IMG/VR virus record: IMGVR_UViG_3300044491_002068
Coordinates: 1 to 64,000 of that record
Direction: 5' to 3' (one strand)
Length of the DNA stretch: 64,000 nucleotides
Source: a virus
The notes below the pieces were generated by a model, which was not told the origin of the DNA, made no database searches, and worked only from the letters and a program-made list of their open reading frames with translations. A program made the translations under genes and the position numbers. Positions 1-15,081 of the stretch are shown one piece after another; position 1 is the first letter of the stretch; each line of letters begins with the position of its first letter.

Positions 1-1
1 A

Positions 2-205
2 CAGATCGAAGCATATCTTAGCGGGCCAGAGGATCGTGAAAGAATAGCGTACAAACCCAACCGGCTAATCGTATTCGACGCAGGGCGTAGAATGCACGAA
101 ACTACCCCATTAATAAACGGTAAGCGTCAGATCATGGTAGTGAATGTCTGGCACAAAGACAGCCCGCCCATGGCGCTACAGACAGGTGAGTTTTTCTATG
201 AATGA
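2..205 (+). CDS. C-terminal part of a 2OG-Fe(II) oxygenase (5' truncated by window edge)
   Basis: Not in ORF track. Frame from base 2 reads QIEAYLSGPEDRERIAYKPNRLIVFDAGRRMHETTPLINGKRQIMVVNVW...FFYE*: PNRLIVFD, distal His and 2OG-binding Arg. Its stop overlaps the next gene's ATG at 198. Confidence 0.75.
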   Translation, partial: QIEAYLSGPEDRERIAYKPNRLIVFDAGRRMHETTPLINGKRQIMVVNVWHKDSPPMALQTGEFFYE

Positions 206-1070
206 AATACAGGCAGAACACATAGGCTTAGGTGTTTTACGCTTCCCATCAGCAGCCACTGTTAATTCAGAAATGCTGGATATAATCGACACACTCCGAA
301 CTGAAGCCCTTAAATCGCACTACACCTATGTATACGACGAAAATGGAGACATTCTTCATGCAACCAACCTGAGTGGGCACCGGTTTACCCCAGAGGAAAT
401 AGACAGTAACTGTGTCCGAATAAACAACTTTAACGACTTGCATGAACAGCATCAAAAAGATTACTTTGCTAATCTAGAAAATGAACTCTACGCTGCCCTA
501 ATAAATTATGCAAACAACTTCCCTATGGCTTTACCGTGCCTCTGGTGGAAAACTAAAGGCCACGTCCTCTCATACTCCGATGGAGCATCACTAGGGTTGC
601 ACGCAGATAACGACATAAATTACAAGCCTAATTTTGAGCCAGACTACCAACTAGGAACAAAGCACGTACTGGCCGCAATCGCCTACCTTAACGACGACTA
701 CGAAGGTGGCGAAATAGAATTCCCGTATCTAGGAATCAAGTATGCCCCAAAAGCCGGAGACATTTTAATGTTTCCAGCAAACTTTATATACGCTCACGAA
801 GTAAACAAAATAACTAAAGGCACTCGGTACGCATATCTAGGTTACTTTGGTCAAGGTTCTTCAGACCCTGAACACGGAGTAACAATAATTGAAGACAGCC
901 CCAATATCTACAGCGGGCAAGTATGGATGAACGACCTATTCATCGACTACTCACAGTTCTTGGATGACAACGGTATAGAGAACGACCACAACAGAATACC
1001 GCTACAACGTGCGTTCCACTCGTCTGGTACCAGAAAGGAAATCAGAAATGCAGAAAATACCGCTAGTTAA
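198..1070 (+). CDS. 2OG-Fe(II) oxygenase (P4H-like fold, 'WWxxxGH' paralogue family)
   Basis: LHADND (HxD), YLNDDYEGGE, YAHEV, TRY. Start moved from 144 to ATG 198 because of coupling to the upstream gene and alignment with paralogue N-termini. Confidence 0.88.
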   Translation: MNEIQAEHIGLGVLRFPSAATVNSEMLDIIDTLRTEALKSHYTYVYDENGDILHATNLSGHRFTPEEIDSNCVRINNFNDLHEQHQKDYFANLENELYAALINYANNFPMALPCLWWKTKGHVLSYSDGASLGLHADNDINYKPNFEPDYQLGTKHVLAAIAYLNDDYEGGEIEFPYLGIKYAPKAGDILMFPANFIYAHEVNKITKGTRYAYLGYFGQGSSDPEHGVTIIEDSPNIYSGQVWMNDLFIDYSQFLDDNGIENDHNRIPLQRAFHSSGTRKEIRNAENTAS

Positions 1071-1659
1071 TATCCCATACTTCTTGGGTCTTATTGATGG
1101 GATTGACAATGAACTTATAGCCGAACAAATCACAAAGTTCGGTAAGCCAGTAGGAAACGGCAGTCACCCCCTAGACGATCAAGCAGTAAACGACGGTGAC
1201 ATACTCTTGCCAGATTCACCAGAAATAAACCAATTACTGCTACAGTTAACACGACTCGTACAACACGCATCAGAAAACCAAGAACTAGCCCTCAAATCAC
1301 AATGGGCGGTTAGTCTTAAAGAAGGAAGAAGTGTGGGCCCCCACTCGCATCACGCAAACTATCACATGTACCCCGAAGACTACTGGTCGGCGGTATACTA
1401 CCCTGTCGCAGACAAGTCATCAGCACCGCTTATTCTGTCTGCAACTTGGTGTAACGTGGTAAACAGGCAGGCCCGGATACAGCCACAAACCGGCATGTAT
1501 GTTATCTTCCCGTCCTACATACAGCAATGGACTAGCCGACAAGCCTCATCGGAGCCTAGACTGGAAATCGGCGCAAACTTTGATCCCGCAGAGCCTAACA
1601 CAGAACCAAACGTAGACTTCTCAATCTACGACCGGCGTCCCCCCATCGACACTGCCTGA
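1048..1659 (+). CDS. Putative 2OG-Fe(II) oxygenase (TIGR02466/2OG-FeII_Oxy_5-like), distal His apparently replaced
   Basis: WAV...PHSH...WSAVYYP...PQTGMYVIFPSYIQQW...R.EI..N pattern; AAAGGA RBS before ATG 1048. Confidence 0.7.
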   Translation: MQKIPLVNIPYFLGLIDGIDNELIAEQITKFGKPVGNGSHPLDDQAVNDGDILLPDSPEINQLLLQLTRLVQHASENQELALKSQWAVSLKEGRSVGPHSHHANYHMYPEDYWSAVYYPVADKSSAPLILSATWCNVVNRQARIQPQTGMYVIFPSYIQQWTSRQASSEPRLEIGANFDPAEPNTEPNVDFSIYDRRPPIDTA

Positions 1660-2396
1660 CTATCATTGATTAAGTTCGGCATCCAAATGCGATGCCCCTC
1701 TTGCCCAACAGTTTCGTTGTTGGCGATGTCAACACCGTAACACGCCACGCTCAGATAGGCTACACGCCTGCCAGAAGTTACCGGAAACACTTCGTGCCGC
1801 CCAACATAGTTAGTTGGGTACACGGCCACTGAGCCAGCCTCTGGAGCAAAAGCGTACTCCGCATGAGGGAAATTCAGTTCGCCTCCAGTATAGTCTTCGC
1901 CGCAAGTGTTTAGATAAAGATTTATGCTAATGTTGTTATACATAGAAACCTGATTAGGGGGTGTCTCCCCCCACTCAAACGGAATCTGGTCATCACAGTG
2001 GGGGCCAATGTTCTGACCGGGGTCATAAACTGCGATATGACCTTGCGGCCTCCACCACGCCGTAGTAGCAGCATCAGGAAAAATAGAACAGTAAGTTACA
2101 AGAGCATCATAAATTGCTTTGTCACAAGAATCAACAAAATCTAAAAACTTCTGCGGTGTTTCATCACTACGGGTCTGACCACGCACGTCAAGAAACCTCT
2201 GCGGAGCCATATGAATCTCTTCAATACTAAACTTGAAACCAGTCTGATTTACAGCATGGTCCTCCTTAATGTTGAAAGTCTCTTCGGGCTCGCCCGTCAA
2301 CCAAGCACAATACTCAGTAAAAATAGACTTATCAAACTCAAGAGCGTCTCTACAAATAACGACGCCCATACCTACATGCTCTGCAGAAATCATCAT
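1626..2396 (-). CDS. 2OG-Fe(II) oxygenase ('WWxxxGH' paralogue)
   Basis: WWRPQGHI, PHCDD, YLN...YTGGEL.FP, GRHEV, GRRVAYL, WMP. Confidence 0.88.
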   Translation of the reverse strand: MMISAEHVGMGVVICRDALEFDKSIFTEYCAWLTGEPEETFNIKEDHAVNQTGFKFSIEEIHMAPQRFLDVRGQTRSDETPQKFLDFVDSCDKAIYDALVTYCSIFPDAATTAWWRPQGHIAVYDPGQNIGPHCDDQIPFEWGETPPNQVSMYNNISINLYLNTCGEDYTGGELNFPHAEYAFAPEAGSVAVYPTNYVGRHEVFPVTSGRRVAYLSVACYGVDIANNETVGQEGHRIWMPNLINDSQAVSMGGRRS

Positions 2397-3289
2397 CCCT
2401 CCGAATTAATTAATGTAACTCTATACTGCTCTGAACTTTTATCGAAACCGGCCTCTTCTAAGTAAGTCCTGTAATCCTCCCGTAGCGTGGGCATCCACAC
2501 ATTCGTGCTATTCTCCGCACCCTCGGGATTTAGAAGTGGGTCACAAACGTCTTCCCTAACCTCAGAGTTTGGGGTGCCCTGAGAGTACCACCCAAGATAC
2601 GAGAGCCTTCTACCCTTCCCTACCGGTAACACTTCGTGTCCTGCGACAAAGTTAGACGGGAAGAACAAGATAGAGCCACGCTCCGGCGTGATAGTGCCAA
2701 CATCTTTCAAATAATTGAAGTTGTGTAGACCTTGTGTAAAGTTTCGGCCATTCAAATCATCAGCGTCAACTGAAGAATTTAGATAGGTTACAGTAGAGAC
2801 AACACTTCGTAAAGCAAGTTCCTGCGGGGTTCGGTGAACTCCGTAAATGTACTCTGCGCTAATGTCTGAATGCGAACCAAGATAGACCCCATCACCATAT
2901 GAAACTACATGGCCCTTAACCTTCCACCATACGCAGTTGTACGCTAGAGGGTATCGTGTAAAGTACTTTAGTAAGCAGCGGTCTTTTGCCGCCTCTAGTT
3001 CTTTAAGTAGATTCCTGACCTCATCGCTGGGGTTTAAATGCAATGAGGAGCCCCTTCTAGGCATAGACATATAGGTATCTAAACCAAAAATGTAGCCGCT
3101 TCTATTCTCGTAAGCAACCTCACCAGTCTCCGGATCGACAGTCTCTGTGTACATTTCTGAGAACTCTTCATCGACCAAATTAGATACAGTGTCATAAACT
3201 TTATCCCAATCACAAGAGATAGCGTTTCTAAACAACACCACCCCGTTGCCTAGGTCCTCCGGTTCAGCATCGTTGTGTGATATAAACAT
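2393..3289 (-). CDS. 2OG-Fe(II) oxygenase ('WWxxxGH' paralogue)
   Basis: WWKVKGHV, SHSD, FFPSNFVAGHEV, GRRLSYL, WMP. Confidence 0.88.
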   Translation of the reverse strand: MFISHNDAEPEDLGNGVVLFRNAISCDWDKVYDTVSNLVDEEFSEMYTETVDPETGEVAYENRSGYIFGLDTYMSMPRRGSSLHLNPSDEVRNLLKELEAAKDRCLLKYFTRYPLAYNCVWWKVKGHVVSYGDGVYLGSHSDISAEYIYGVHRTPQELALRSVVSTVTYLNSSVDADDLNGRNFTQGLHNFNYLKDVGTITPERGSILFFPSNFVAGHEVLPVGKGRRLSYLGWYSQGTPNSEVREDVCDPLLNPEGAENSTNVWMPTLREDYRTYLEEAGFDKSSEQYRVTLINSEG

Positions 3290-3298
3290 GTGTCTATT

Positions 3299-4120
3299 CT
3301 ACTTGTAAAGATATGATGTGTCAATCTCTGGATGGCTACAAAAATAACCTAAGAACTGACGTTCATCACGTTTAAACCCACCGCTAACAGCGTGAGACAT
3401 TACAAACAAGTCACTAACAAGCAGGTCACCGTTCTGCCAACTCCACACAAGTTGATTGTATGGATTCAAAACTATTTCAGTCTCAACTACGTCAACACAC
3501 TTAACGAAGAAATTAGTTTCATCGTTTGAGGGCTTACCACCATTAAACGATATCAAATCTACGTCGCCTTGACATATCCTAACAACATCGGCGTTTTTAA
3601 ATGGGTGTTTAACTATAGCATCTCTAGCAACTTTAGTTGTGACGTTTCCCTTTTTATCAACTACAACTTTACTACCTATCACACACTTTCTCAAAAAGTC
3701 AACAACTTCAGATGAGAGTGTGTCTATAATTTTAGAGTTATCTGTGAAATATGTTTTTCCTACATCTGCGGAGCAGGAGAACTTCTGCATGTTCCAAAAT
3801 CCTGCAACAGTAGAATTTTCCAAAGACGAATGAACATGCTCTAAATGCCAGTTAACCGCAAAATCATCCGGAGTGTGCTCACCGTAGCAAAAGGTATGCG
3901 AATGATCCTCGCTGTACCGCCGCAGAACAGAACGATCAAAATCGTCTGAACGGGGAGTCCACCCAACATAATCGCCAATCGCTAAAATTATGTCTATCTG
4001 CTCTTCCTCAGAAGCGAACAATCCACGAAAACCGTAGACGCCTTCTTCTAGAAACTTTTCAGCAAAATACTTTGAGTCCCGAATTATGTCACTAAACGAG
4101 CACTCAACAACGTCAATCAT
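3299..4120 (-). CDS. TauD/TfdA-family 2OG-dependent dioxygenase
   Basis: GVYGFRG, WHLE (HxE), GKTYF.D, IVKHPF, WQNGDLLVSD...MSHA...R: TauD-type motif order. Confidence 0.75.
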   Translation of the reverse strand: MIDVVECSFSDIIRDSKYFAEKFLEEGVYGFRGLFASEEEQIDIILAIGDYVGWTPRSDDFDRSVLRRYSEDHSHTFCYGEHTPDDFAVNWHLEHVHSSLENSTVAGFWNMQKFSCSADVGKTYFTDNSKIIDTLSSEVVDFLRKCVIGSKVVVDKKGNVTTKVARDAIVKHPFKNADVVRICQGDVDLISFNGGKPSNDETNFFVKCVDVVETEIVLNPYNQLVWSWQNGDLLVSDLFVMSHAVSGGFKRDERQFLGYFCSHPEIDTSYLYK

Positions 4121-5178
4121 GACTCAATTGGTACAGGGTCCGTCCCACAGTTAGCATTTTCGTCCAAAACCTCTGCCTCATGAGTTGAACCATACTGGGC
4201 AACACATCGACCCTGATAGACAGGGTTAATGCCTTGATTCTGCTCAGCGCCTGTACTAATGCGGGAATACTCAGACTTACAATACTTCTCGTAATCGTCA
4301 TAAATGTTGTTCATCCACATCGCTGGGCACCACTGGTAACTATCCTCAGGCTCAACAATATTAATGTTTGCGTCCATGTGCGGAGAGCCCTGACCAAAGA
4401 AAGACAAGTAACTATATCGTACACCCGAATTCATACGGCTAACCTGATGTGAAGCCATATAGTTCGTGGGGAAGAAAACGATGTCGCCCTTCTGGGGCTT
4501 GTAGTCGATGCCCAAATGGAAAAACTCTAAATGTCCGCCAGTGAAATTTGTACCATCTAACTCGTCGTCTGTGTCAACAGAGTCATTAAGATAAACTAAA
4601 CATCCACATGTCTGTCTAGCCGCCATCTGACCCCGAGGCATATAACGCACACCTTCAGTCACCTTATAGTTAGTGTCGTTATCACAGTGGGCTCCCAAAA
4701 TACCTTCATCTTCGTAGCGAAGAATATGGCCACGGTTCTTCCACCAAACACAACCCACCATGAGAGGGAAGTAGTCAATGTATCGGAGCAAAGCCTTGTA
4801 GATAACGTCTTCCATATCATGAAAGAATTTTCTTGGAACTTCGGGGGTATCCTCAATAACCGGATGAAGTAGTCGCACAGGAGTAGAAGGAATGTCCTCT
4901 GGCCGATACCTAAAGCCGTCCTCATTAATACCGTACTTTTCACCATCTTCACCAACTATATATTCCCACCTGTTTTGGTGTGAAACTACAGACTTCTCAT
5001 CAATGTATTTAAATACTTCGGTAGGATCGGCAGTTAAAGCGCCACGAAAAACTAGGACACCTCCACCTAAATCCTCAACGTCGAAATCAGCAATTTCCTT
5101 AATAGCGGCGTCATCAATAAGAGGGGTGTCCGGGTGCGGATCACCACTCCGCTCTGGAGGAGTGTTAAAATCAGTCAT
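4117..5178 (-). CDS. 2OG-Fe(II) oxygenase ('WWxxxGH' paralogue)
   Basis: WWKNRGHI, AHCDND, FTGGHLEF, FFPTNYMASHQV, GVRYSYL, WMN. Confidence 0.88.
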   Translation of the reverse strand: MTDFNTPPERSGDPHPDTPLIDDAAIKEIADFDVEDLGGGVLVFRGALTADPTEVFKYIDEKSVVSHQNRWEYIVGEDGEKYGINEDGFRYRPEDIPSTPVRLLHPVIEDTPEVPRKFFHDMEDVIYKALLRYIDYFPLMVGCVWWKNRGHILRYEDEGILGAHCDNDTNYKVTEGVRYMPRGQMAARQTCGCLVYLNDSVDTDDELDGTNFTGGHLEFFHLGIDYKPQKGDIVFFPTNYMASHQVSRMNSGVRYSYLSFFGQGSPHMDANINIVEPEDSYQWCPAMWMNNIYDDYEKYCKSEYSRISTGAEQNQGINPVYQGRCVAQYGSTHEAEVLDENANCGTDPVPIES

Positions 5179-5180
5179 GT

Positions 5181-5924
5181 TTACTTCTTTACTAGAATGT
5201 GGAACCCGATAGCGTGCGGGATGTGGTAAGACGTAATATCGTCTCGCTCATGAATCTGCTCGTAAAAATCAAACAAAGGTTCAATATAATATTTGTCTGA
5301 ATACAAACGCATCATTTCATTAGAAGGTGCCGTATAGATAACACCACCCGACCTTGTTAGATCAATAACCTTATCCAAAAGAGGAGGATTGATGAGCGTG
5401 TCCACCGTGTGGATATGCACATAATCAAACTGCGCCCCATCTAGATTCTCTAACTCTTCCATGTCAACAACGTTGTAATCTCCCTCCCACGGGAACTCTG
5501 GGCGTGTCAAAATGTGTCTCTCAAAAATATCAAGACATTCATTATTAACAAACGTCATGTTGCAGCCCTTACGTTGCATATCAGCAGCAAAATCAAAGTT
5601 TCTGTCAGGAGTCAACATTAACACGTCAGTAGGCTTAGCGATATCAGCAGCCATCTGTGAATAGAGGCCAGTGCAAATGAAAACCATTTCTTTCCATCCA
5701 GCCACTGAACCAGAAATCAAATCCCACACATGCAAATAAAAATCACTGCCAACCGCAATAGCCCGACGATCAAGACCTAAAGATGTCCACTCCGCCTGCA
5801 ACGTTTTAGCCACATCATCATGGAACGAGAAGAAGTCGTAGTCTAATTCACGGGAAGAGTTTTGAGAAAACTCGTAAGTCAGTGCGTTCGCAATTAAAAA
5901 TTTGCTACCAAGAATCTTATCCAT
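5181..5924 (-). CDS. Putative class I SAM-dependent methyltransferase-like protein (divergent)
   Basis: C-terminal half resembles the Rossmann MTase core (AQFDYVHIH...LTRSGGVIY...GFHILVKK); no clear glycine-rich motif I. Confidence 0.45.
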   Translation of the reverse strand: MDKILGSKFLIANALTYEFSQNSSRELDYDFFSFHDDVAKTLQAEWTSLGLDRRAIAVGSDFYLHVWDLISGSVAGWKEMVFICTGLYSQMAADIAKPTDVLMLTPDRNFDFAADMQRKGCNMTFVNNECLDIFERHILTRPEFPWEGDYNVVDMEELENLDGAQFDYVHIHTVDTLINPPLLDKVIDLTRSGGVIYTAPSNEMMRLYSDKYYIEPLFDFYEQIHERDDITSYHIPHAIGFHILVKK

Positions 5925-6213
5925 TAACTCTACCCTTCGCTAACTGCCAGCGATGCCACAACCTACGGCTATTCATCATCACAAGAATATTTATCTCCTT
6001 CAAAGCATCATTAGAGGCGACTGAAGTCCCTTCCAACCGCTTAAACGGAAAGTTATCCTTTAGCGCATCCACGATGCTATCAAACGTGGACGAATTAATA
6101 TCTGAAGTGTCCATGCCTAGAACATACATAATTGACACTATTTCTCGCTCAATATGTGCCAAGTCTTTACTGGCATCATACGTCGGTGTGTTTCTGTTAC
6201 CAACTCTACTCAT
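5917..6213 (-). CDS. Hypothetical protein
   Basis: 98-aa ORF with overlapping start/stop coupling to both neighbours. Confidence 0.7.
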   Translation of the reverse strand: MSRVGNRNTPTYDASKDLAHIEREIVSIMYVLGMDTSDINSSTFDSIVDALKDNFPFKRLEGTSVASNDALKEINILVMMNSRRLWHRWQLAKGRVNG

Positions 6214-6482
6214 TGTGCTAAATCATCCCAGTCTTCCTCGGGAAAAGGAATAGGTGTATTGCGGGCGTTAGTCTCACTGGTAATCATTTCACACAGGTAT
6301 CCCTCTCCTGAAGGAAAGTTCCAAGCAGGAATAGAAGAATCAAAACGCACGGGCTGCTCCTTGACCGACGATGTGTCAGCGGGATCAGGACCGTCATCGG
6401 GCTGACCAAAAGCATTAACGTCAACTCCCGCATCCACGGCTTCGTCTTGAATTGTGCGATCAGTTACCTTGTAGTTCTTCAT
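6210..6482 (-). CDS. Hypothetical acidic protein
   Basis: 90-aa Asp/Glu/Pro-rich ORF, ATGA-coupled on both sides. Confidence 0.7.
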   Translation of the reverse strand: MKNYKVTDRTIQDEAVDAGVDVNAFGQPDDGPDPADTSSVKEQPVRFDSSIPAWNFPSGEGYLCEMITSETNARNTPIPFPEEDWDDLAQ

Positions 6483-6697
6483 GCCTCAAGAGCCTCTAAA
6501 TTCGTCACCATCTTTACCAGCGTCGTATAAGCCGGATAGTCTGGATCGGCATTAGAAACTGGAATCTCATATGCAGAAGTAAGCGTAGCAGTATCAACAT
6601 TTAGCATCATCGCTAACGACACAATGTTTTGATTGAGAAAGTCGATTGCCTTCTCTTTGGCCTTCTGCCGCTGTTCTTCTGAAATTGTTACAGCCAT
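6479..6697 (-). CDS. Hypothetical protein
   Basis: 72-aa helical-looking ORF with GAGGAAAG RBS. Confidence 0.7.
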   Translation of the reverse strand: MAVTISEEQRQKAKEKAIDFLNQNIVSLAMMLNVDTATLTSAYEIPVSNADPDYPAYTTLVKMVTNLEALEA

Positions 6698-6704
6698 TCT
6701 TTCC

Positions 6705-7550
6705 TCACAGTCTAGATATTTCTAGTTTCATACTATTATATGATACACAATCACGATACAGTCGTGCAAGTCTTGGGCGAGGCTCCTCCATCAGATTATT
6801 TTCTGTCGCCCATAGCCTAAACGACAGCGGCATATCTGGTTCTTCTTCAGAAAGAACACATGAACCCGTCTTGAAATATTGTGCTATTTGTTGATCTGGT
6901 AGTTGCATCAAGTCCCTCACAACAGGGTCAGATTCAGCATTATCTACATTAAGCCCAAAATGACTTAGAAGCGTATCAGCGGCCTCTGCGGCGGGCTCAA
7001 CACTACCAGTATGTATCTTCGCCCACTGCCACTCTAACATCAATTTAAAGAACTCATGTAACGTAGCAGAACCAAAGTACGGATGTATCATCGACGTACT
7101 CCTTACCAAACCATCACCCTTCTCGTCCACTTGGGTATAAATAATGTACCCCACATCGGGATCGTGGAACAACGTCAAATGCTTCTGAATCATACTCAAA
7201 AAGTCATTAATGTGGTCTAATACGATTGTACGGTAATCCTCACGACCGTACAACTCGTCCATGGTTCTAGGTAGATGTGTCTCTGTCGAAGAACACAAAG
7301 GGTACATCCAGTGATCGGTGTGATCTTCCTTAGGGCAAGATGCCCAAAGCCTATAAATTTTATTGAAACGATTAACAGCGCCCACCTCTACAGGGCGCAT
7401 CATTGGAGTGATAATGTCGATTAAATCTTGCAAATCCTCATAATCGTTTGGATCATAGCCTGCCTCAGTTATCATCAAGTCTAGCCTAGGCTTAATCTCA
7501 TTCATTTTTTCTTGCAAAGACGCTTTGCGGATATTGTTTGAAAGTCGCAT
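6705..7550 (-). CDS. Hypothetical protein
   Basis: 281-aa ORF with AAAGGA RBS and upstream TGGTAGAAT extended -10. Confidence 0.75.
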   Translation of the reverse strand: MRLSNNIRKASLQEKMNEIKPRLDLMITEAGYDPNDYEDLQDLIDIITPMMRPVEVGAVNRFNKIYRLWASCPKEDHTDHWMYPLCSSTETHLPRTMDELYGREDYRTIVLDHINDFLSMIQKHLTLFHDPDVGYIIYTQVDEKGDGLVRSTSMIHPYFGSATLHEFFKLMLEWQWAKIHTGSVEPAAEAADTLLSHFGLNVDNAESDPVVRDLMQLPDQQIAQYFKTGSCVLSEEEPDMPLSFRLWATENNLMEEPRPRLARLYRDCVSYNSMKLEISRL

Positions 7551-7585
7551 AACTATCCTTTCGCTATGATACTATTCTACCATAC

Positions 7586-8203
7586 TCAGTAGTCCAGTAC
7601 CTCGTCAATGCACTCCCTAATAGTCCAACTCTCACCAGTCGTCAACGGAACATCATCAAGAGGATCGCTTTGCCAATTAAATCTGGTAATCATCTGACCG
7701 TTCCTACCTACAATAAACTTTTCCCAACTATGGGGAATTCTCGCAACAGCCCCACCTGACTTGTTCCATCCCTCCTGTGCCGCATCGGAGGTATCTGCAG
7801 GCGAAGCGGCCTTAACCCTGACAACGTTACCCAGCAAAGCAGAATAAACTAGGCTACCATCTCTACCGTTTACATCAATCTTTTCGGATAAAGGGAACCG
7901 TACAAACGGGTAGACTTGCTTCATCCACGCAGAAATCTCATGATTATCTGACGGTTCCATCTGCCCGAACTGGTTGCACGGGAAACCCACCACACTAAAC
8001 CCTCGGTCCTTAAACTCGTCATGAACCTGCTGTAGTTGCCAAAACTGCCGCACTGTTCTAGCATACGACCAAAAAGTGCTACACTGCGGGGTGTAACCCA
8101 ACTTGGAAACAGTGTTGACAACTAAGGTCACCTTACCATCGAACTGTTGCATGAAATCAGGCTCACCGTCCAACGAATTCATTTGAATGTCATAAACGCT
8201 CAT
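7586..8203 (-). CDS. Glutathione peroxidase-family protein with atypical active site
   Basis: GKVTLVVN.VSK, GFSVVGFPCNQFGQMEP, EKIDVNG, EKFIVGRNG. The peroxidatic Cys position is Leu. Confidence 0.85.
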   Translation of the reverse strand: MSVYDIQMNSLDGEPDFMQQFDGKVTLVVNTVSKLGYTPQCSTFWSYARTVRQFWQLQQVHDEFKDRGFSVVGFPCNQFGQMEPSDNHEISAWMKQVYPFVRFPLSEKIDVNGRDGSLVYSALLGNVVRVKAASPADTSDAAQEGWNKSGGAVARIPHSWEKFIVGRNGQMITRFNWQSDPLDDVPLTTGESWTIRECIDEVLDY

Positions 8204-8523
8204 TGCTTACTCCAAGGATCACGGCCATCTGAAACCTCCCCATAAATTGGGCAAGTCAACATTGACTTTCCAGAAAAAGGATCAATAATATCGACAACTC
8301 CGCCCAACACCCCATTGTCTACCTTGCTACACACAATCTTAACAATACACTCAAACGGTGTATTAGTAGCGCCAAGCATTATGATGTTATTTTCAGAAAC
8401 AGCAGACTCTTCAAAATCTAGTTTACCCTTAAACATATGGGCACTACCATTATCACCATCAGGAAGATGTAAAAGAAACTTCTCGCTACCTAGGGGCGTG
8501 TGAACTGTCATTGAGTATGCCAA
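8200..8523 (-). CDS. Hypothetical protein
   Basis: 107-aa ORF overlapping both neighbours in the operon. Confidence 0.65.
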   Translation of the reverse strand: MAYSMTVHTPLGSEKFLLHLPDGDNGSAHMFKGKLDFEESAVSENNIIMLGATNTPFECIVKIVCSKVDNGVLGGVVDIIDPFSGKSMLTCPIYGEVSDGRDPWSKQ

Positions 8524-9239
8524 TTTGGAACCTCCGGTATTTCAGGGTCTTGAAGATCAACAAGACCATCATGACGTGGCCCAATCCGGTTACCATCAGC
8601 ATCTAAACCAGTACGAATACCGTTCATCCAACTCCACGGCTCATCCTGCATCTTCTTCATCTTTGCCTCGTTATACTTAACTCTGCTCTCAATTAAATCG
8701 GGCTTATCCCAAAGATTCTCTACAGTACACTCTAGATCAGGCATCAAGTTTGAATCAAAGACAAAGAAGAAAGCAAACGGCATACCCTTAGGAAACACAA
8801 CCTCTTTACCAACTTCAGTTATCTTCCAAGCCATCTGTACCTCATCAGGCCACCAATCACTTGGGATAACCGCAGACAGTGGGACAGCACCGTCAACAAA
8901 ATAGTTAGGAGGACCAGTAATCCACGTATGATGGCCCTCTTCTGTGTTGAAAGCCCACCCTAACTGGAAATCCACCATACCAATCTTATTACAATTGGCA
9001 ACCATTCTGTTGTCATGCTCTTCACCAGAAATTAAAGTTGGGACACTATTACCACCATCCCACTTAACAACAACGTCGCAAGGTAACAAAATTTCCCAAC
9101 CACTGACGTTTGCCATGCTTACAGGCAAACATCGGTAGGCGTGCTTGTTATATGTTGCATCCATCCAATCACGGCGTAGGCTAGCCTGCTGAATATGAGG
9201 AGAGCCTTGATGAGTGCGTACTAAAGTAAGTTTACTCAT
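8508..9239 (-). CDS. DUF6065-like protein
   Basis: RRDWMDAT..KHAYRCLPVSMANVSGWEILLP, ITGPPN, IPSDWWP, FPKGMPF motifs. Confidence 0.75.
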   Translation of the reverse strand: MSKLTLVRTHQGSPHIQQASLRRDWMDATYNKHAYRCLPVSMANVSGWEILLPCDVVVKWDGGNSVPTLISGEEHDNRMVANCNKIGMVDFQLGWAFNTEEGHHTWITGPPNYFVDGAVPLSAVIPSDWWPDEVQMAWKITEVGKEVVFPKGMPFAFFFVFDSNLMPDLECTVENLWDKPDLIESRVKYNEAKMKKMQDEPWSWMNGIRTGLDADGNRIGPRHDGLVDLQDPEIPEVPNWHTQ

Positions 9240-10093
9240 CGTGGTGTTTGGTATGTGTAGTTACCGCTGTTGCCCGCCTGCTGTTGTGCTTTCCAACTAG
9301 CCATAGCATAATTATGAATTTCTTCATTAATGATTGCACGCAACTCTTCGTTGTCCATAAGGCTCACAGGTGGGCGAGAGTCAGGGAAAGACGGCTTAGT
9401 TGGTTGTTCATTAGACTGGCCAAAGTCACGAGAAAATCCACCGTGCTGGTGAGCATCATCGTTGTAGTCAAACATGGTCACAGCGGAATACTTAACCCCA
9501 GACTTTACTGGTAGTGCGGCGTGAGCATAGATGTATGTAGAGGGGAAAAAGACAGAATCTCCGGCTTCTGGCTTATAAGAAACATTAAGCAACGGGAAAT
9601 GTAGTTCACCGCCCTCGTAATCATCATTAAGATAAGTCACATTAGACACTGTGCAAATGTATGAGAACCCATGATCCGTGTGTACGCCGAAGTGCTCGTT
9701 CTCTCCGTAGCGAACAAAATTGATTGCTTCCATGTAGTTCATGTTGATGTTGTACATTGCCTGATAGTGCGCTAAACCATCCTTGATTCTGGACGCAACA
9801 TCATTATAGACACTCACTAACTCATCAAATTCTGCAGGTGTCTGAGCAATGTAATCTTCTGTCATCTTAAAGTCAACACAATCACGATACTCTGGCATCT
9901 TAACGCCCTCGCCTACGAGAGAGTCGTGCCACTTGAAGTATTCGTGCTCACTGTTATCTAAAGCAGAGTGTAACCTATCTGGAACATATGTAACGCCATC
10001 AAGACAATTCTTGTACACCACGATACCCAAAAGAGGGTCTCCAATGTACTCGTAGTCGAACTTTGGCTCTATGTTGGTTTTTCCGTATCCCAT
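9236..10093 (-). CDS. Prolyl 4-hydroxylase-like 2OG-Fe(II) oxygenase
   Basis: EAINFVRYGENEHFGVHTD, YLNDDYEGGEL.FP, YAHAALPVKSGVKY (Lys at the 2OG-binding position). Confidence 0.9.
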   Translation of the reverse strand: MGYGKTNIEPKFDYEYIGDPLLGIVVYKNCLDGVTYVPDRLHSALDNSEHEYFKWHDSLVGEGVKMPEYRDCVDFKMTEDYIAQTPAEFDELVSVYNDVASRIKDGLAHYQAMYNINMNYMEAINFVRYGENEHFGVHTDHGFSYICTVSNVTYLNDDYEGGELHFPLLNVSYKPEAGDSVFFPSTYIYAHAALPVKSGVKYSAVTMFDYNDDAHQHGGFSRDFGQSNEQPTKPSFPDSRPPVSLMDNEELRAIINEEIHNYAMASWKAQQQAGNSGNYTYQTPR

Positions 10094-10105
10094 GCGTCTA
10101 TAATA

Positions 10106-10681
10106 TCAAACATACCGTGTGGAGTCAAATCTTTCTAGAACATGCCAAAACGTTGTGATGTTCAGGCGCTCTCCCGAGTTAACTCTAGAAACTTGATGCA
10201 AATACTTCTCGCTGGTAGGGAAAGTGACTAGCGTCCCTGCCTTTGGGTAAAAAAATAAATCTTGGTTTGGAAGAAAAAGATCACCACCCGTGAAATCCTC
10301 ACCATGGTTACTGAAATAAACCAGTGTCGATATATCTCTAGACGGGTACCCCGCATATGTTGAAAGATTCATAGACTTTTCTTGGTAACTGTCGGCGTGC
10401 AGAGACAAATCCCACCCCTCTAATGCGCAAACGACTGACGCTAATTCCTCTACACCAACTTCGCACGAATAGTAGTCTTCGATAAAATCTTTAATTCTAA
10501 TATTTAAATCTTCCATAAGCGGGAAAAGTACTTCACTTTCTCCCGTCTGGACGTACCTGTCATAGGAGTGGCCTTCAACATCGTATCTCTTTAACATGCT
10601 GAGTTCAGAAATAAAGGTATCTAGAGCCGCACTGTCAATAAAGTTTGGGTAAACTACTACACCATCGTACTCTTTAATCAT
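10106..10681 (-). CDS. Prolyl 4-hydroxylase-like 2OG-Fe(II) oxygenase
   Basis: LHADS, FTGGDL, PKAGTLVTFP, YLHQV, GER. Likely start MIKEY (10681) overlapping the upstream stop. Confidence 0.87.
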   Translation of the reverse strand: MIKEYDGVVVYPNFIDSAALDTFISELSMLKRYDVEGHSYDRYVQTGESEVLFPLMEDLNIRIKDFIEDYYSCEVGVEELASVVCALEGWDLSLHADSYQEKSMNLSTYAGYPSRDISTLVYFSNHGEDFTGGDLFLPNQDLFFYPKAGTLVTFPTSEKYLHQVSRVNSGERLNITTFWHVLERFDSTRYV

Positions 10682-11315
10682 TGCCAGTCTCTCGCAAATT
10701 CTCAACTACTGTATAAAACGAAGGAGTAGTCCACCTTTCCCCACTGGTAATAGGGCGAACACCGTGTAAATAGTTTCTATCACCCACGAACATGACGGCC
10801 AACCCCGGCTTCGGAGTAATCTCAATGTTGTGCTGTGGGAAGTACAGGCTTCCGCCAGTAAAATCGTCGTTATAGTAAATCAACGAATTCAAATCATAAG
10901 TCGGGAATGGATTAGGGTTACCGTCGTTAAGTTCTTTGTCAGCGTGAGGTTGCTGCTCAATCCCCTCAAACCACCGCATCAAAACTGGAGGTCTACTGTG
11001 CACTTTGACATCAAAAAACGCTTCTACTTCTGACGCCATTTTAGCAATATACTTTTCAATAATCGCATACACCTCAGGGCTTTTTCTTTCGATTATCTGC
11101 CCGCTACACATTCGATCATTCCAGTACGTGGCATCATAAATGCAGACACCGTTGTCGTCGTACTCTGTCTCTTTCCCGTTTTCCCACTCATCAATCGTAG
11201 GTAGAAACTCTTGAACCTTAAGTAAATCCTCAGGATCAATGAAGTTTTCGAATACGACAATGTTCTCGGTGCTGTCACCGTAATAACCTGATGGTATGAT
11301 TGAAACTTCTTCCAT
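10674..11315 (-). CDS. Prolyl 4-hydroxylase-like 2OG-Fe(II) oxygenase
   Basis: QQPHADKE, YYNDDFTGGSLYFP, YLHGVRPITSGERWT. Confidence 0.9.
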   Translation of the reverse strand: MEEVSIIPSGYYGDSTENIVVFENFIDPEDLLKVQEFLPTIDEWENGKETEYDDNGVCIYDATYWNDRMCSGQIIERKSPEVYAIIEKYIAKMASEVEAFFDVKVHSRPPVLMRWFEGIEQQPHADKELNDGNPNPFPTYDLNSLIYYNDDFTGGSLYFPQHNIEITPKPGLAVMFVGDRNYLHGVRPITSGERWTTPSFYTVVENLRETGND

Positions 11316-11353
11316 GCCCTTATTCTAGTACCTACCTTACTCTACGTCAACAA

Positions 11354-12394
11354 TCACTTGAATGCTGGCGGGAAGTAAGGTGGGAAGAACGGTGGGAAGA
11401 ACGGAGGGAAGAACGGTGGGAAGAAAGGAGGGAAGAACGGAGGGAACCACGGCGGGAAGTAAGGAGGGAAGTAAGGTGGGAAAAAGGGAGGGAAGAAAGG
11501 AGGGAAGAACGGAGGGAAGAACGGAGGGAAATAGGGAGGGAAAAACGGTGGGAAGAAAGGCGGGAAATAAGGCGGGAAGAAAGGCGGGAAGAACGGCGGG
11601 AAATAAGGTGGAAAGAACGGAGGGAAGAACGGAGGGAAATAGGGTGGAGCGACAGGAGTTACCGTAACGCTGTTCGACCAATCTCCAACAATGTGATCGT
11701 TCTCTAACCTGCCTCGGATACTATACTCGGTACCGTTAGTCAATGTTAAAGTATCAGATGTTGCAGTAGGGTTATCTGTTGTGACTGACGATACTGTACT
11801 GCCACCGCCCGTAGGGATGGCCTCAATCCTGATATAGTTGGAATAGCCACCTTCATCGTAAAAGTCTGAGGTAGCAGCGCCTCCCCCAAAATCACCAATA
11901 ACATGCGCCGTCCATGAAACAGTAGACGCAGCGTCGTCACCGTTAGTGGCGCTGATAGTATTCATAGTGACAGGCTTGCGGACAACGATTAGGTCAGCAA
12001 TTTCCATACTATTTTGTGCCCCGTCTTCAGACGTGGTAGTCACCATAAACCTATACGAGCCTCCGGCGTTAACCTGATTTGCTGAAGACGCTCCCGATGC
12101 AACAATGTCAAATGTGAAAGATTGCTCTGAACCCTCCGCAACAGCGCCACCCGGACCTGACGCACTATAACCTAAGCCAGATTGGTTTGCGTTTGTTGGA
12201 AGGTCAGTATCGTGAGTCCACCCTCTAACATCAGCAGTTGTACCTTTTCCTACGTAAGACGGTGTGACGCCAAAAGAAACACTATTACTACTGGTACCTA
12301 TTACGGGGATAGAGCCTCCAGAAGGAGACGGCGTTGTAGTTACAGAACTTTCAGGTAACTTTCCACCTTGTCCTACATCCTTGTTAACTGCCAT
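11354..12394 (-). CDS. Putative virion-associated FN3-like protein with C-terminal (PPxF)24 repeat tail
   Basis: Ser/Thr/Gly-rich beta-type body, FN3-like end (LTNGTEYSIRGRLEN...GDWSNSVTVTP), then 24 PP[F/Y/W/A]F units and a terminal Lys. Directly follows the tail fibre gene. Confidence 0.85.
   Translation of the reverse strand: MAVNKDVGQGGKLPESSVTTTPSPSGGSIPVIGTSSNSVSFGVTPSYVGKGTTADVRGWTHDTDLPTNANQSGLGYSASGPGGAVAEGSEQSFTFDIVASGASSANQVNAGGSYRFMVTTTSEDGAQNSMEIADLIVVRKPVTMNTISATNGDDAASTVSWTAHVIGDFGGGAATSDFYDEGGYSNYIRIEAIPTGGGSTVSSVTTDNPTATSDTLTLTNGTEYSIRGRLENDHIVGDWSNSVTVTPVAPPYFPPFFPPFFPPYFPPFFPPFFPPYFPPFFPPFFPPYFPPFFPPFFPPFFPPFFPPYFPPYFPPWFPPFFPPFFPPFFPPFFPPFFPPYFPPAFK
11360..11647 (-). repeat. 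24 x 12-nt coding tandem repeat encoding PPFF (15), PPYF (7), PPWF (1), PPAF (1)
   Basis: 288 nt = 24 units; synonymous Pro, Phe and Tyr codons vary between units. Confidence 0.95.
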
Positions 12395-12405
12395 AATTGC
12401 ACGCC

Positions 12406-14919
12406 TTAGTCGGAAAGGTCACCCACTGCAACCCATGTGTCTGTCGCTCTTTTTATTAGTGTAGCAGAAGACCACTGATCACGCAACTTAAGACCCGGAG
12501 TAGCATTAATCGTCACGCCCGCACCCGCAGTAATAGTGGTCTGACCGGCCCCAGTCTGCAACACAGTTATTTGCGCACCAACCGGGAACGCAACAGAAGA
12601 ATTAGGGGGCACAGTCAACGTATTGGCTGAACCATTACTGACTTCAACCAACTTGTCCTTATCCCCTAATACTAGCGTATAACTTCCAGCCTGCGCATTA
12701 GTTTTAAGAGTAGAAGACGCAAACTCTCGCTGAGCAGAACCATCACCGACGATAATCTTATCATTCGTGGCATCCCAAGCAATGCGACCTTCTGAAGATG
12801 AAGCAGTAGTTGAAAGCAGTGAAACGGCCACTGCCGTGCCTAGCGCTGAAGCAGACAGAACGGAAGTATTGTTGATGTAGAACGCCTTACCTGAGGCAAG
12901 GTCTATATGCTCTGAAGATGTCCACGAGTCTGTAGCATCTACCCAGTTGAATGTTTTATCTGTAGTTCCTTTAAGGGTGATTCCTCCACCGTCAGCAGTA
13001 GTGTCTGTAGGTGAGCCTACAGATCCCAACTCAATATTTTTATCGTCTACTGAAATGGTGGTAGAATTTACTGTAGTCGTAGTACCATTTACAGTTAGAT
13101 CACCGCTGACTATGAGGTTATCGTCTACTGTCACGGTTCCACCGGCAGAGTCTATTGTCAAGTTTCCTAGTGATGTGTCAATTTCGTTTGTGCCAGTTAT
13201 ACCTATTTGTAAGTTTCCTGCCGTAACGTTACCAGTCACGTTACCAGTCACGTCGCCAGTCACGTTACCAGTCAAATCCCCGGTCACATCGCCTGTAACA
13301 TTACCAGCCACATTTCCTGTTAAGTCACCTGTAACGTCTCCTGTCACGTTGCCGGTCACGTTCCCTGTTACGTTCCCAGTCACATCGCCAGTGACTCCAC
13401 CAGTCAAATCTCCTGTAACATTGCCGGTCACGTTACCGGTCAGGTTACCGGTCACGTTTCCTGTTAAATCGCCCGTAAGGTCGAAGGCGGCATTAGATAC
13501 TGTGGCACCAGAAAGATTAACCGTTCCAGAGAACGTAGACGTTCCGGACGAAGTAATGTTGCCAGTAACATCACCAGTCACGGCACCTACAACGTCTCCT
13601 GTCACATTACCAGTCAAATCACCAGTAACATTACCAGTAACATCACCAGTAACATTACCTGTCAAGTTTCCGCTAACATCACCGTTAACGTTGCCAGTCA
13701 AGCCTCCAGTAACGTCAGCGTTCAGTGTAGCGTCAGACCCGTCAGTACCGGACTCTAAAATTTTACTGGTACCATTTGAAGCATACACATCTCCGGTCAA
13801 ATCCCCAACAACGTTGCCAGTAACATTACCTGTAATGTCACCAGTCACATCGCCAACAAGATCGAAAGAAGCGTTAGAGACAGTCGCACCCAAAAAGTTG
13901 ACCGATCCAGAGAAAGCAGAACTTCCAGATGACGTTATATTGCCTGTCAAGTCGCCGGTCACATCGCCAGTAACATTACCGGTCACATTGCCTGAAACAT
14001 TACCTGTAACATCACCACTCAAGTCACCAGTGACGTTTCCAGTAACGTTTCCGGTTAAATCACCTGTAACGTCACCGGTAACATTACCGGCCACGTTTCC
14101 AGTAACATTACCCGTCAAATCACCAACAACATCACCCGTGACATCGCCTGTCACATTGCCCGTCACATTACCGCTAACGTTGCCCGTCACATCACCAGAA
14201 ACGTTTCCGGTTAAATCGCCTGTAACGTCACCGGTCAAATCGCCAACAAAACTAGTAGAAGTAACAGAAGTCAAACCAGTCAACGACGAATCCATACTAA
14301 TTGTGTTGCCCGACTTAGACAGATTAGAACCAGCAGTGATAGAACTTACACCAGAAAATTGTGTGTAAACAAAAGCGTCAGTATTGAAGGTGTGTACTTC
14401 ATTGGTTCCAGTACCTTCAGAAGTTAAAATGAAACCTTGATTAGCGTTAGATGCCCCTCCCAAAACCCAAGCAGCCTGACCAGCGTACACGCTAGTGTCG
14501 CTATCGGTAGCACGAGTCAAAACGTATGCTGTGCTAACATCGCCCTGAGTTGTAACACTATAGATACCGTTCTGTACACCGGCAGCCTGATTCTTTACCA
14601 GAACACGGTCACCTGCAGTACCGTTAACACCATCTACAGAAATACGGCCATTTGAGCCAGCAGTTAACGTGGCACCTACACCTGAGGAGCCGTTATCGTA
14701 CGTGGGGGTGTTAGCAAGAACGCCTGCTGTCGCTAAATCGACAGCCTCAACCCAATGGACACCTGTCTCAACAGTTGCATCAACATAGTCAGTTGTTGCA
14801 ATACGGTCAGAAGCGTTACTAACCACGATAGACCAGTATGTTCCGTTCCATTGCCATGTACGGTTGCTGACTGTGTGGGTGTCGTTTACACTTGGGGAGT
14901 CAGGGAAGTTAATAGCCAT
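12406..14919 (-). CDS. Tail fibre protein with G[ND][VL]T tetrapeptide repeats
   Basis: N-terminal MAINFP.SP...WQWNGTYW module, GDRVLVKNQ...NGIY module, long TGNV/TGDV/TGDL tracts, C-terminal fibre-tip-like domain (VAFPVG...DTWVAVGDL). Confidence 0.85.
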   Translation of the reverse strand: MAINFPDSPSVNDTHTVSNRTWQWNGTYWSIVVSNASDRIATTDYVDATVETGVHWVEAVDLATAGVLANTPTYDNGSSGVGATLTAGSNGRISVDGVNGTAGDRVLVKNQAAGVQNGIYSVTTQGDVSTAYVLTRATDSDTSVYAGQAAWVLGGASNANQGFILTSEGTGTNEVHTFNTDAFVYTQFSGVSSITAGSNLSKSGNTISMDSSLTGLTSVTSTSFVGDLTGDVTGDLTGNVSGDVTGNVSGNVTGNVTGDVTGDVVGDLTGNVTGNVAGNVTGDVTGDLTGNVTGNVTGDLSGDVTGNVSGNVTGNVTGDVTGDLTGNITSSGSSAFSGSVNFLGATVSNASFDLVGDVTGDITGNVTGNVVGDLTGDVYASNGTSKILESGTDGSDATLNADVTGGLTGNVNGDVSGNLTGNVTGDVTGNVTGDLTGNVTGDVVGAVTGDVTGNITSSGTSTFSGTVNLSGATVSNAAFDLTGDLTGNVTGNLTGNVTGNVTGDLTGGVTGDVTGNVTGNVTGNVTGDVTGDLTGNVAGNVTGDVTGDLTGNVTGDVTGNVTGNVTAGNLQIGITGTNEIDTSLGNLTIDSAGGTVTVDDNLIVSGDLTVNGTTTTVNSTTISVDDKNIELGSVGSPTDTTADGGGITLKGTTDKTFNWVDATDSWTSSEHIDLASGKAFYINNTSVLSASALGTAVAVSLLSTTASSSEGRIAWDATNDKIIVGDGSAQREFASSTLKTNAQAGSYTLVLGDKDKLVEVSNGSANTLTVPPNSSVAFPVGAQITVLQTGAGQTTITAGAGVTINATPGLKLRDQWSSATLIKRATDTWVAVGDLSD

Positions 14920-14952
14920 AGTAATAGTTTACCATAAACTAATGTTAGACAA

Positions 14953-15081
14953 TTAATCTATACCACCTTCACTGCTGGTGCCAGAACTAGAACCAGTGAC
15001 GCTGTAGGTTGCAAACCCCACGTTGTATGGGGCGTTGAGCGTGGAGTAACTATGTGTTGGCGACGAGTAAGTCGTAGCCAT
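14953..15081 (-). CDS. Small Ser/Thr/Gly-rich ORF (42 aa), possibly a gene relic
   Basis: MATTYSSPTHSYSTLNAPYNVGFATYSVTGSSSGTSSEGGID*; ATG overlaps the upstream TGA (TGATG). Below the ORF-track cutoff. Confidence 0.45.
   Translation of the reverse strand: MATTYSSPTHSYSTLNAPYNVGFATYSVTGSSSGTSSEGGID

Follow-up and report, generated by a model that had tools for sequence, protein, structure and literature searches.

A phage protein ending in a Pro-Pro-aromatic-Phe repeat is linked to an array of 2-oxoglutarate oxygenases: a candidate substrate beside putative tailoring enzymes

Results

A Pro/aromatic tract ahead of an oxygenase block

The virus record IMGVR_UViG_3300044491_002068 in IMG/VR is a linear contig of 105,330 bp with a CheckV completeness of 71%, and its first 64 kb (positions 1 to 64,000) are the stretch analyzed here, called the window. 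At the left end of the window (2-12394), a gene encodes a protein of 346 amino acids (aa) that ends in 24 consecutive Pro-Pro-x-Phe (PPxF) units, and behind it lies a block of genes for putative Fe(II)/2-oxoglutarate (2OG) dioxygenases and accessory proteins. On the minus strand, baseplate and fiber genes lead to the gene of an 837-aa fiber, then to the PPxF gene, and then to the enzyme block (Table 1), which is located in the structural region and not among early or metabolic genes. Both elements had been noticed in an original prediction made from the letters of this DNA, and both hold: the last gene of the fiber cluster does end in 96 residues made of Pro and aromatics, here resolved into the 24 units, and the enzyme genes do follow on the same strand, the first of them beginning 38 nucleotides (nt) downstream.

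The variable position x is occupied by Phe in 15 units, by Tyr in seven, and by Trp and Ala in one each. No charged residue occurs in the tract before Lys346 (11357-11359), which, with the stop codon, ends the protein. Tandem Repeats Finder (TRF) reports a period of 12/36 nt with matches of only 82-83%, and the DNA copies of the repeat are therefore not identical. The Pro codons of the tract are mixed (CCT 20, CCG 17, CCA 8, CCC 3), and its Phe codons (11360-11647) are TTC 36 times and TTT three times, compared with a ratio of about 1:1 in the other genes of the phage. Aligned over 35 codons with the orthologous tail in locus L123, the tract shows 18 synonymous and 0 non-synonymous differences; the corresponding figures for the ortholog in L125, also over 35 codons, are 12 and 0. 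Because the differences among orthologous tails are almost all synonymous, the repeat is judged to be more than the outcome of chance or of fresh slippage, and the codon patterns indicate that the tract is translated in the stated frame under strong purifying constraint. Among relatives, the number of units varies between 9 and 24, and all keep TPVA-PPYFPPFF at the junction and PP[A/S]FK at the end. The N-terminal domains of close relatives are 40-73% identical or have been replaced, while their DUF6065 proteins stay 84-87% identical.

The part of the protein ahead of the tract is best described as two fibronectin type III (FN3)-like domains. In VIA-align comparisons, residues ~139-250 of a low-confidence model match many FN3 domains in the PDB (Z 11.5, root-mean-square deviation 2.1-2.6 Å over 94-95 residues), and residues 16-250 match tandem FN3 pairs (mean predicted local distance difference test score, pLDDT, of the model 48). 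A Pfam scan of the PPxF protein gave no FN3 match, and a search of its N-terminal 250 aa against a set of 5.8 billion proteins returned a single fragment as homolog. The tail was modeled without regular secondary structure, and the tract is predicted to be an extended, non-globular rod. It is the sole real Pro-rich repeat in the 105-kb contig. It is not a collagen-like Gly-X-Y repeat, as the 96 residues contain no Gly and the period is four residues. An Arg/Glu-rich open reading frame (ORF) that reads through the repeat on the other strand (11300-11707, +) was rejected as a mirror artifact of the repeat. Elsewhere in the contig, a 67-aa ORF (91562-91762, +) with a Pro-rich run of the PPPxSPPP type is either a candidate gene or a wrong-frame artifact.

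Linkage of the tract and the oxygenases across phages

At least 119 loci in IMG/VR contain a run of four PP[FY]F units. The tract genes recur in three forms, namely proteins of ~125 aa, proteins of 240-440 aa with an NSVTPVA junction as in the window, and larger proteins with internal tracts. The oxygenase family PF13640 was present in 44 of the 50 tract-bearing records examined, mostly in 5-11 copies, though most of these records are fragments. When the window genes were searched against the tract loci, up to 83 loci had oxygenase homologs and 57 had DUF6065, in a constant order: fiber, tract gene, oxygenases, DUF6065, small genes, the gene of a 247-aa protein, a glutathione peroxidase (GPx)-like gene, and more oxygenases.

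The linkage was then counted from three starting points. In the forward direction, an oxygenase or DUF6065 homolog starts at most 2.5 kb downstream of 58 tract genes out of the 71 that have at least 2.5 kb of downstream DNA, with a median gap of 146 nt; the proportion is 35/38 for C-terminal tracts and 23/33 for internal ones. For the reverse direction, DUF6065 alone was used to collect 80 loci, and a tract on the same strand lies upstream in 42 of the 44 that have at least 5 kb of upstream sequence. Of the other two, one begins inside the array and one has a tract of the variant form xPPxFF, with PPAFK at its end. Finally, a gene of the baseplate region (15891-16640) served as a neutral anchor in the 36 loci that extend 8 kb or more beyond it on the downstream side: ten contained the tract and oxygenases, none the tract only, one an oxygenase only, and 25 neither (Fisher p = 4e-8, uncorrected for relatedness). 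The genetic linkage between tract and oxygenases is thus strong in both directions and from the neutral anchor, and the link that the original prediction proposed to test by a PPxF pattern search is borne out.

Seventeen loci extend for 10 kb on both sides. A fiber, a tract, two short types and one long type of oxygenase, DUF6065, and the 247-aa gene are present in all of them, and the number of oxygenase-like ORFs per locus ranges from 5 to 13 (median 9).

The oxygenases and their conserved neighbors

The original prediction counted ten oxygenases in the window, which is a fair number: seven are firm PF13640 members, the TauD-like protein is firm by its Pfam profile, and two are weak. The seven PF13640 genes score 31-46 bits against a curated cut-off of 27, and all seven paralogs keep the HxD...H pattern and a basic residue after the distal His. 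In the alignment (A1), H124, D126, and H184 are invariant, and an R/K column follows in an S/K-G-x-R/K motif. Compared with the PDB, the oxygenase profile finds the PKHD hydroxylase 3dkq, the prolyl 3-hydroxylase (P3H) P3H1 (8k0e), the prolyl 4-hydroxylases (P4Hs) of B. anthracis (3itq/5hv0) and PBCV-1 (5c5t), and the LH3/L230 lysyl hydroxylases. The best solved relatives of oxygenase 3 are the P4Hs of Bacillus anthracis and PBCV-1, and the window's oxygenases match 5c5t with an E value of 0.008 for a single protein and of 1e-6 for the profile. By these alignments, the oxygenases are assigned to the peptidyl-prolyl/lysyl hydroxylase clade, with intact catalytic residues. PDB sequence searches with oxygenase 4, DUF6065, the TauD-like protein, and the 247-aa protein gave no usable match; in the TauD-like protein, an H-L-E...H pattern that may be the triad is visible in the sequence. 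Co-folding oxygenase 3 (alignment A4) with residues 240-300 of the tail (A2) yielded a score of 0.00 in a run made without controls, which speaks neither for nor against an interaction.

Table 1 Features of the PPxF locus, listed in the direction of the minus strand
Feature	Position	Strand	Basis or remark
Tail-fiber protein, 837 aa, Asn/Asp/Gly/Thr beta-helix-type repeats and conserved C-terminal tip domain	12406-14919	-	PHROG tail-fiber families
PPxF protein, 346 aa, two FN3-like domains, (PPxF)24, and Lys	11354-12394	-	ORF translation
N-terminal part, residues 1-249, two FN3-like beta-sandwich domains	11648-12394	-	VIA-align against PDB
(P-P-x-F)24 tract, residues 250-345	11360-11647	-	Translation, TRF
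Oxygenase 1, 213 aa, PF13640	10674-11315	-	Pfam; usual first gene type after the tract in relatives
Oxygenase 2, 199 aa, PF13640	10106-10705	-	Pfam
Oxygenase 3, 285 aa, PF13640	9236-10093	-	Pfam; stop overlaps DUF6065 start
DUF6065 protein (PF19541), 243 aa, predicted dUTPase-like fold, invariant Cys37	8508-9239	-	Pfam 160 bits against cut-off 26.6
Unknown protein, 107 aa	8200-8523	-	Present in closest relatives only
GPx-like protein (PF00255), 205 aa	7586-8203	-	Pfam GSHPx 88 bits
Four unknown genes, 281, 72, 90, and 98 aa	5917-7550	-	98-aa and 72-aa genes recur in relatives
Conserved 247-aa protein, possible O-methyltransferase-like Rossmann fold	5181-5924	-	Atlas feature score 0.91-0.93 to Methyltransf_3 clusters
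Oxygenase 4, 353 aa, PF13640, long subtype	4117-5178	-	Pfam
TauD/TfdA-family dioxygenase-like protein, 273 aa	3299-4120	-	Pfam 33.4 bits against cut-off 27
Oxygenase 5, 298 aa, PF13640	2393-3289	-	Pfam
Oxygenase 6, 256 aa, PF13640, last gene of the minus-strand run	1626-2396	-	Pfam
Probable oxygenase 8, 216 aa, PF13759, convergent unit	1009-1659	+	Pfam 25.4 bits, just under cut-off 27
Oxygenase 7, 308 aa, PF13640, convergent unit	144-1070	+	Pfam
Oxygenase-like protein, 233 aa, of which only the C-terminal 67 aa lie on the contig	2-205	+	Identity to L120 protein

The ORF truncated at the contig end (2-205) has a full-length counterpart in a near-identical phage, a 233-aa protein (L120:19035-19736, -) whose C-terminus it matches at 100% identity. 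This counterpart carries the HxD...H pattern and matches PF13640 weakly (19 bits). A terminator-like hairpin lies at 1611-1630, by the end of oxygenase 6. Scanning 1-15200 for promoters and terminators gave about as many sites as expected from shuffled sequence, and no terminator-like site was found between the tract gene and oxygenase 1.

DUF6065 is a core member of the block, and an oxygenase ORF abuts it in 67 of 76 loci, where the two are probably coupled in translation. Its AlphaFold2 model (pLDDT 80) is confidently predicted to adopt the jelly-roll fold of trimeric dUTPases: the top Foldseek matches are all dUTPases (E 5e-5 to 6e-4, template modeling score on target 0.6-0.75), at a sequence identity of 10-15%. 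Its Cys is invariant in alignment A3. No papers mentioning DUF6065 were found in the literature searched.

The GPx-like gene, present in 16 of the 17 full-length loci, encodes a protein that matches yeast Hyr1 (3cmi, E 8e-21). The original prediction rightly called it an altered GPx: SKLGYT aligns to SKCGFT of 3cmi, with Leu in place of the peroxidatic Cys. A Cys lies five residues after this Leu, and there is a 13-residue insert. In ten of 84 related ORFs, the motif could be located, and the position is Leu in seven, Ala in two, and Cys in one; the examples shown have a Cys five residues on. The protein appears to represent a phage subfamily of its own within the GPx fold. In the near-identical phage, beyond the left edge of the window, the oxygenase block is bordered by a thioredoxin gene (L120:19801-20187, +) with a WCGPC motif and a PF00085 match of 100 bits, which could pair with the GPx-like protein.

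The 247-aa gene occurs in all 17 full-length loci. It had been called methyltransferase-like, and on this point the results divide: the Atlas feature similarity agrees, whereas Pfam on 28 homologs and the PDB profile give marginal methyltransferase matches only. A methyltransferase at this position is a weak lead, and so is methylation of the tail; cross-linking of the tail is speculation. No glycosyltransferase occurs in the block.

The original prediction also allowed that modified peptides might be released. In such a scheme, the tract would be the core of a ribosomally synthesized and post-translationally modified peptide (RiPP), hydroxylated, cut off, and set free. A repetitive peptide encoded beside tailoring enzymes is what one would expect of it, and in the family of ~125-aa proteins, over half of the length is taken up by the tract. 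However, Pfam and PHROGs reveal no protease, leader or recognition element, or exporter in the block, and the sequence offers no cleavage-type motif but only the invariant TPVA junction and the terminal Lys. The tract is moreover attached to FN3-like domains in the 346-aa product of a fiber gene block. We therefore regard a RiPP-like release as very improbable, and this part of the prediction is not upheld.

Distribution and variant cassettes

Large tract-bearing records (76-83% complete) contain no homolog of the capsid protein of the window phage and only very divergent PF05065 capsids, and the CheckV estimates of tract-bearing records imply genomes of ~107, 150, and 210 kb. The block is not simply the frozen synteny of one lineage. 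T4-type capsids (PF07068) were not detected in tract-bearing records, but the control genomes were silent too, which makes this result uninformative. Prokaryote genomes totaling 596 Gb yielded only 14 matches to the pattern, and every long tract lies within the same phage block on a contig of a metagenome-assembled genome. Among cultured phages, no match was obtained by megablast with 1-12500, by tblastn with the PPxF protein (where the low-complexity filter masks the tail), or by tblastn with DUF6065, and no isolate carrying the block was found.

A variant occurs in a clearly different phage (L018:3297-9900, IMGVR_UViG_3300025466_000020). Here, a 375-aa protein has an internal (PPFF)10 tract with Cys/Tyr/Gly-rich flanks, followed within 5 kb by enzyme genes. 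The downstream genes encode a DUF6171-like protein, two paralogs of ~230 aa that are weakly like DUF6065, a sulfotransferase, an Asp/Asn beta-hydroxylase, a methyltransferase-like protein, a canonical P4H, and an adenosine 5'-phosphosulfate (APS) kinase. This set suggests hydroxylation followed by sulfation. The literature searched yielded no relevant paper on phage repeats of the PPFF/PPYF type and nothing relevant on a phage prolyl hydroxylase with hydroxyproline in virions. The module is real, conserved, and widespread, and it is undescribed in that literature.

Discussion

We give about an even chance to the reading that the FN3-(PPxF)n protein is a fiber-associated late protein whose prolines are hydroxylated by at least some of the adjacent P4H-type enzymes. 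The sequence comparisons establish the anatomy of the block, the family of the enzymes, their intact catalytic residues, the purifying selection on the tract, and the tight genetic linkage; the role of the tract as substrate, the choice of modified residues, the place of the protein in the virion, and the function of the appendage are inferred. According to this model, the tail fiber would be joined by a fiber-associated protein with two FN3-like domains that ends in an uncharged (Pro-Pro-aromatic-Phe)n polymer. At least some of the collagen-type Fe(II)/2OG dioxygenases (P4H/P3H/lysyl hydroxylase clade) would hydroxylate the prolines of this polymer in late infection, and the aromatic residues or the terminal Lys might be modified as well. 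Hydroxylation would stabilize a polyproline-II rod, so that a very hydrophobic tract would become a soluble, stiff appendage on the fiber. The many paralogs may act on different positions or with different stereochemistries, or on further targets such as the fiber. DUF6065 might be a partner or a further enzyme, and the GPx-like protein and the nearby thioredoxin could handle oxidative by-products.

A more ambitious version would see in the block a dedicated pathway for a new biopolymer, a polyproline-type rod of ~30 nm made of Pro-Pro-aromatic-Phe units and hydroxylated at several positions (3-/4-hydroxyproline, beta- or ring-hydroxy aromatics, terminal Lys). It would be O-methylated or sulfated in some lineages, with DUF6065 as a new enzyme or a substrate-holding partner, and the product would be an adhesive bristle, similar to extensin or mussel glue, that catches the host or particles. 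We consider this version unlikely.

Several observations weigh against hydroxylation of the tract by its neighbors. The linkage counts are uncorrected for shared ancestry, and adjacency makes co-coverage on fragments automatic. Conserved adjacency in a late-gene block can persist without any enzyme-substrate relation, and 5-13 oxygenases exceed the obvious needs of a four-residue repeat. Tracts without neighboring oxygenases, which by the original prediction would refute it if they occurred at background frequency, exist as a minority: 13 of the 71 tract genes have no oxygenase close downstream, and two tract records of 37-38 kb (L007, L051) have none anywhere. Arrays without a tract, the converse case, are represented by Synechococcus phage Syn9, where the array directly follows Gly-rich fiber genes and no two PPxF units stand in a row anywhere in the genome; the tract is therefore dispensable for such arrays. 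In L052 and L165, two tract genes each directly follow a fiber gene, and only one of them adjoins the array, the other lying several kb away. As these second tract genes follow other fiber genes far from the array, the tract gene is primarily a partner of fibers. In L232 (10001-15281), a 1292-aa fiber ends in a His/Asn/Ser/Thr-rich repeat (HTHNG...) with no PPxF tract, and behind this fiber are a homolog of the 281-aa unknown protein of the window and a single P4H-like gene. The synteny comparison places a fiber gene of the 837-aa type before the PPxF gene in most related loci; the fiber could therefore be the target instead. In the contig of the window phage, dioxygenase genes also occur far from the block, with a further PF13640 gene at 77194-77736 and PhyH and Oxy_5-like genes at ~100.6-102.2 kb.

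Much of this would fit an alternative in which the oxygenases modify other proteins (the Asn/Asp/Gly-rich fiber, other virion proteins, or host proteins) and the PPxF protein is an unmodified polyproline-type spacer or bristle that shares the late-gene block. The Syn9 array, the L232 fiber, the second PPxF genes that pair with fibers at a distance, and the records with a tract and no oxygenase all point in this direction, as does the Asp/Asn beta-hydroxylase of L018. On the other hand, the enzymes belong by sequence to the prolyl/lysyl hydroxylase clade, and no other real Pro-rich repeat occurs in the contig. Seen from the neutral anchor, tract and array are present or absent together, and the N-terminal domain and the fiber vary widely while tract and enzymes stay together. 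We regard modification of other proteins as possible but on the unlikely side.

For the preferred reading, hydroxylation of the tract, the closest characterized parallel is a eukaryotic giant virus. The prolyl 4-hydroxylase of PBCV-1, in work from 1999 by Eriksson and colleagues, reportedly acts on the Pro-rich repeats of the virus itself, and P4Hs accept poly-proline-like substrates. As here, PBCV-1 encodes a P4H-type Fe(II)/2OG dioxygenase and proteins with Pro-rich tandem repeats. However, PBCV-1 has one enzyme, charged repeats of the (PAPK)n type, and no operon-like block, whereas the phage block, known here from its genes, has 5-13 paralogs, DUF6065, and an adjacent uncharged Pro/aromatic polymer. 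Extended Pro-rich repeats with Tyr also occur in plant extensins and other hydroxyproline-rich glycoproteins and in mussel foot protein 1, whose function needs hydroxylation of Pro (in mussels, also of Tyr) by dedicated enzymes. There is no sequence relation to the tract, and their repeats are rich in Ser, Lys, and Thr and are charged or glycosylated.

The closest described gene arrangement is that of Syn9, in which gp41-gp54 include ten tandem dioxygenases and a Cys-bearing protein of the dUTPase fold (Iyer, Abhiman, de Souza, Aravind 2010, PMC2938197). Both arrays combine several distinct dioxygenase families in tandem (here short and long PF13640, TauD, and PF13759-like) with a Cys-bearing dUTPase-fold protein, and both follow tail fibers. 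Syn9 differs in having two tryptophan halogenases and a JmjC/MINA-type enzyme, and neither Pfam family was found in the window genes of 1-12394. We also compared Syn9 gp43 with DUF6065; hhalign gave an E value of 0.024 over 45 columns and Pfam gave no match, and homology of the two is not established. The same paper predicts bacterial hydroxylase-sulfotransferase operons with collagen-like or tail-collar proteins (PMC2938197). These resemble the phage cassettes in joining a structural repeat protein, dioxygenases of the beta-hydroxylase type, and sulfation enzymes, and L018 has exactly such a set. The block in the window, in contrast, has neither sulfotransferase nor APS kinase, and its partner is the PPxF tract instead of a Gly-X-Y or tail-collar protein.

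Published readings of phage dioxygenase arrays lead to another alternative, in which the array serves to make or modify a small molecule, such as a secondary metabolite, or reprograms host metabolism, for example through the 2-oxoglutarate/succinate balance, with no relation to the tract. Iyer et al. read the Syn9 array as metabolite synthesis and named no protein substrate (PMC2938197), and Sullivan et al. tied cyanophage 2OG oxygenases to 2-oxoglutarate/succinate balance, nitrogen stress, or DNA repair (PMC3037559). The many distinct oxygenase subfamilies, the TauD-like, GPx-like, and possibly methyltransferase-like genes, and the dioxygenases elsewhere in the genome would all suit such a role. 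Nevertheless, the block contains no synthetase, halogenase, carrier, or transporter gene by Pfam and PHROGs, and it sits in the structural region. A small-molecule role would also leave the tight two-way linkage to one peculiar tract unexplained. We think it quite improbable.

Of the "auxiliary" genes of aquatic phages that still lack an explanation, those for Fe(II)/2OG oxygenases rank with the commonest. The functions proposed for them in print are DNA repair, 2-oxoglutarate balance, and metabolite synthesis (PMC3037559, PMC2938197). Precedents exist for the pairing of a prolyl hydroxylase with a Pro-rich repeat in a virus and for dioxygenase arrays in phages; the conserved, adjacent Pro-rich tract adds a testable candidate substrate for the phage enzymes. 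If hydroxylation of the tract is true, phages would hydroxylate their own virion appendages, as animals do collagen and plants extensins, and DUF6065 could be seen in a context. For research on adhesion and biomaterials, the (PPxF)n polymer and its tailoring set might also be of interest. Since the tract has no Lys or Arg except as its last residue, ordinary tryptic proteomics would have missed it.

Genomic context of the block

The window phage is contractile-tailed. Its HK97-type capsid protein is ~48% identical to capsids of Gordonia phages, and its genome encodes a family-A DNA polymerase, a ribonucleotide reductase, and a WhiB protein (88203-88382). Taken together, these genes make an actinobacterial host likely. 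At its C-terminal end (12406-12870, -), the 837-aa fiber shares ~100 residues, at 35-58% identity, with the ends of minor tail proteins from 218 Gordonia phage records and from a few phages of proteobacteria, and this segment looks like a widely exchanged fiber-tip domain. At the far end of the contig (99778-102242; L199:9779-12243), a histone-deacetylase-family gene, a PhyH dioxygenase gene, and a gene for an Oxy_5-like protein lie between ThyX and an SNF2 helicase.

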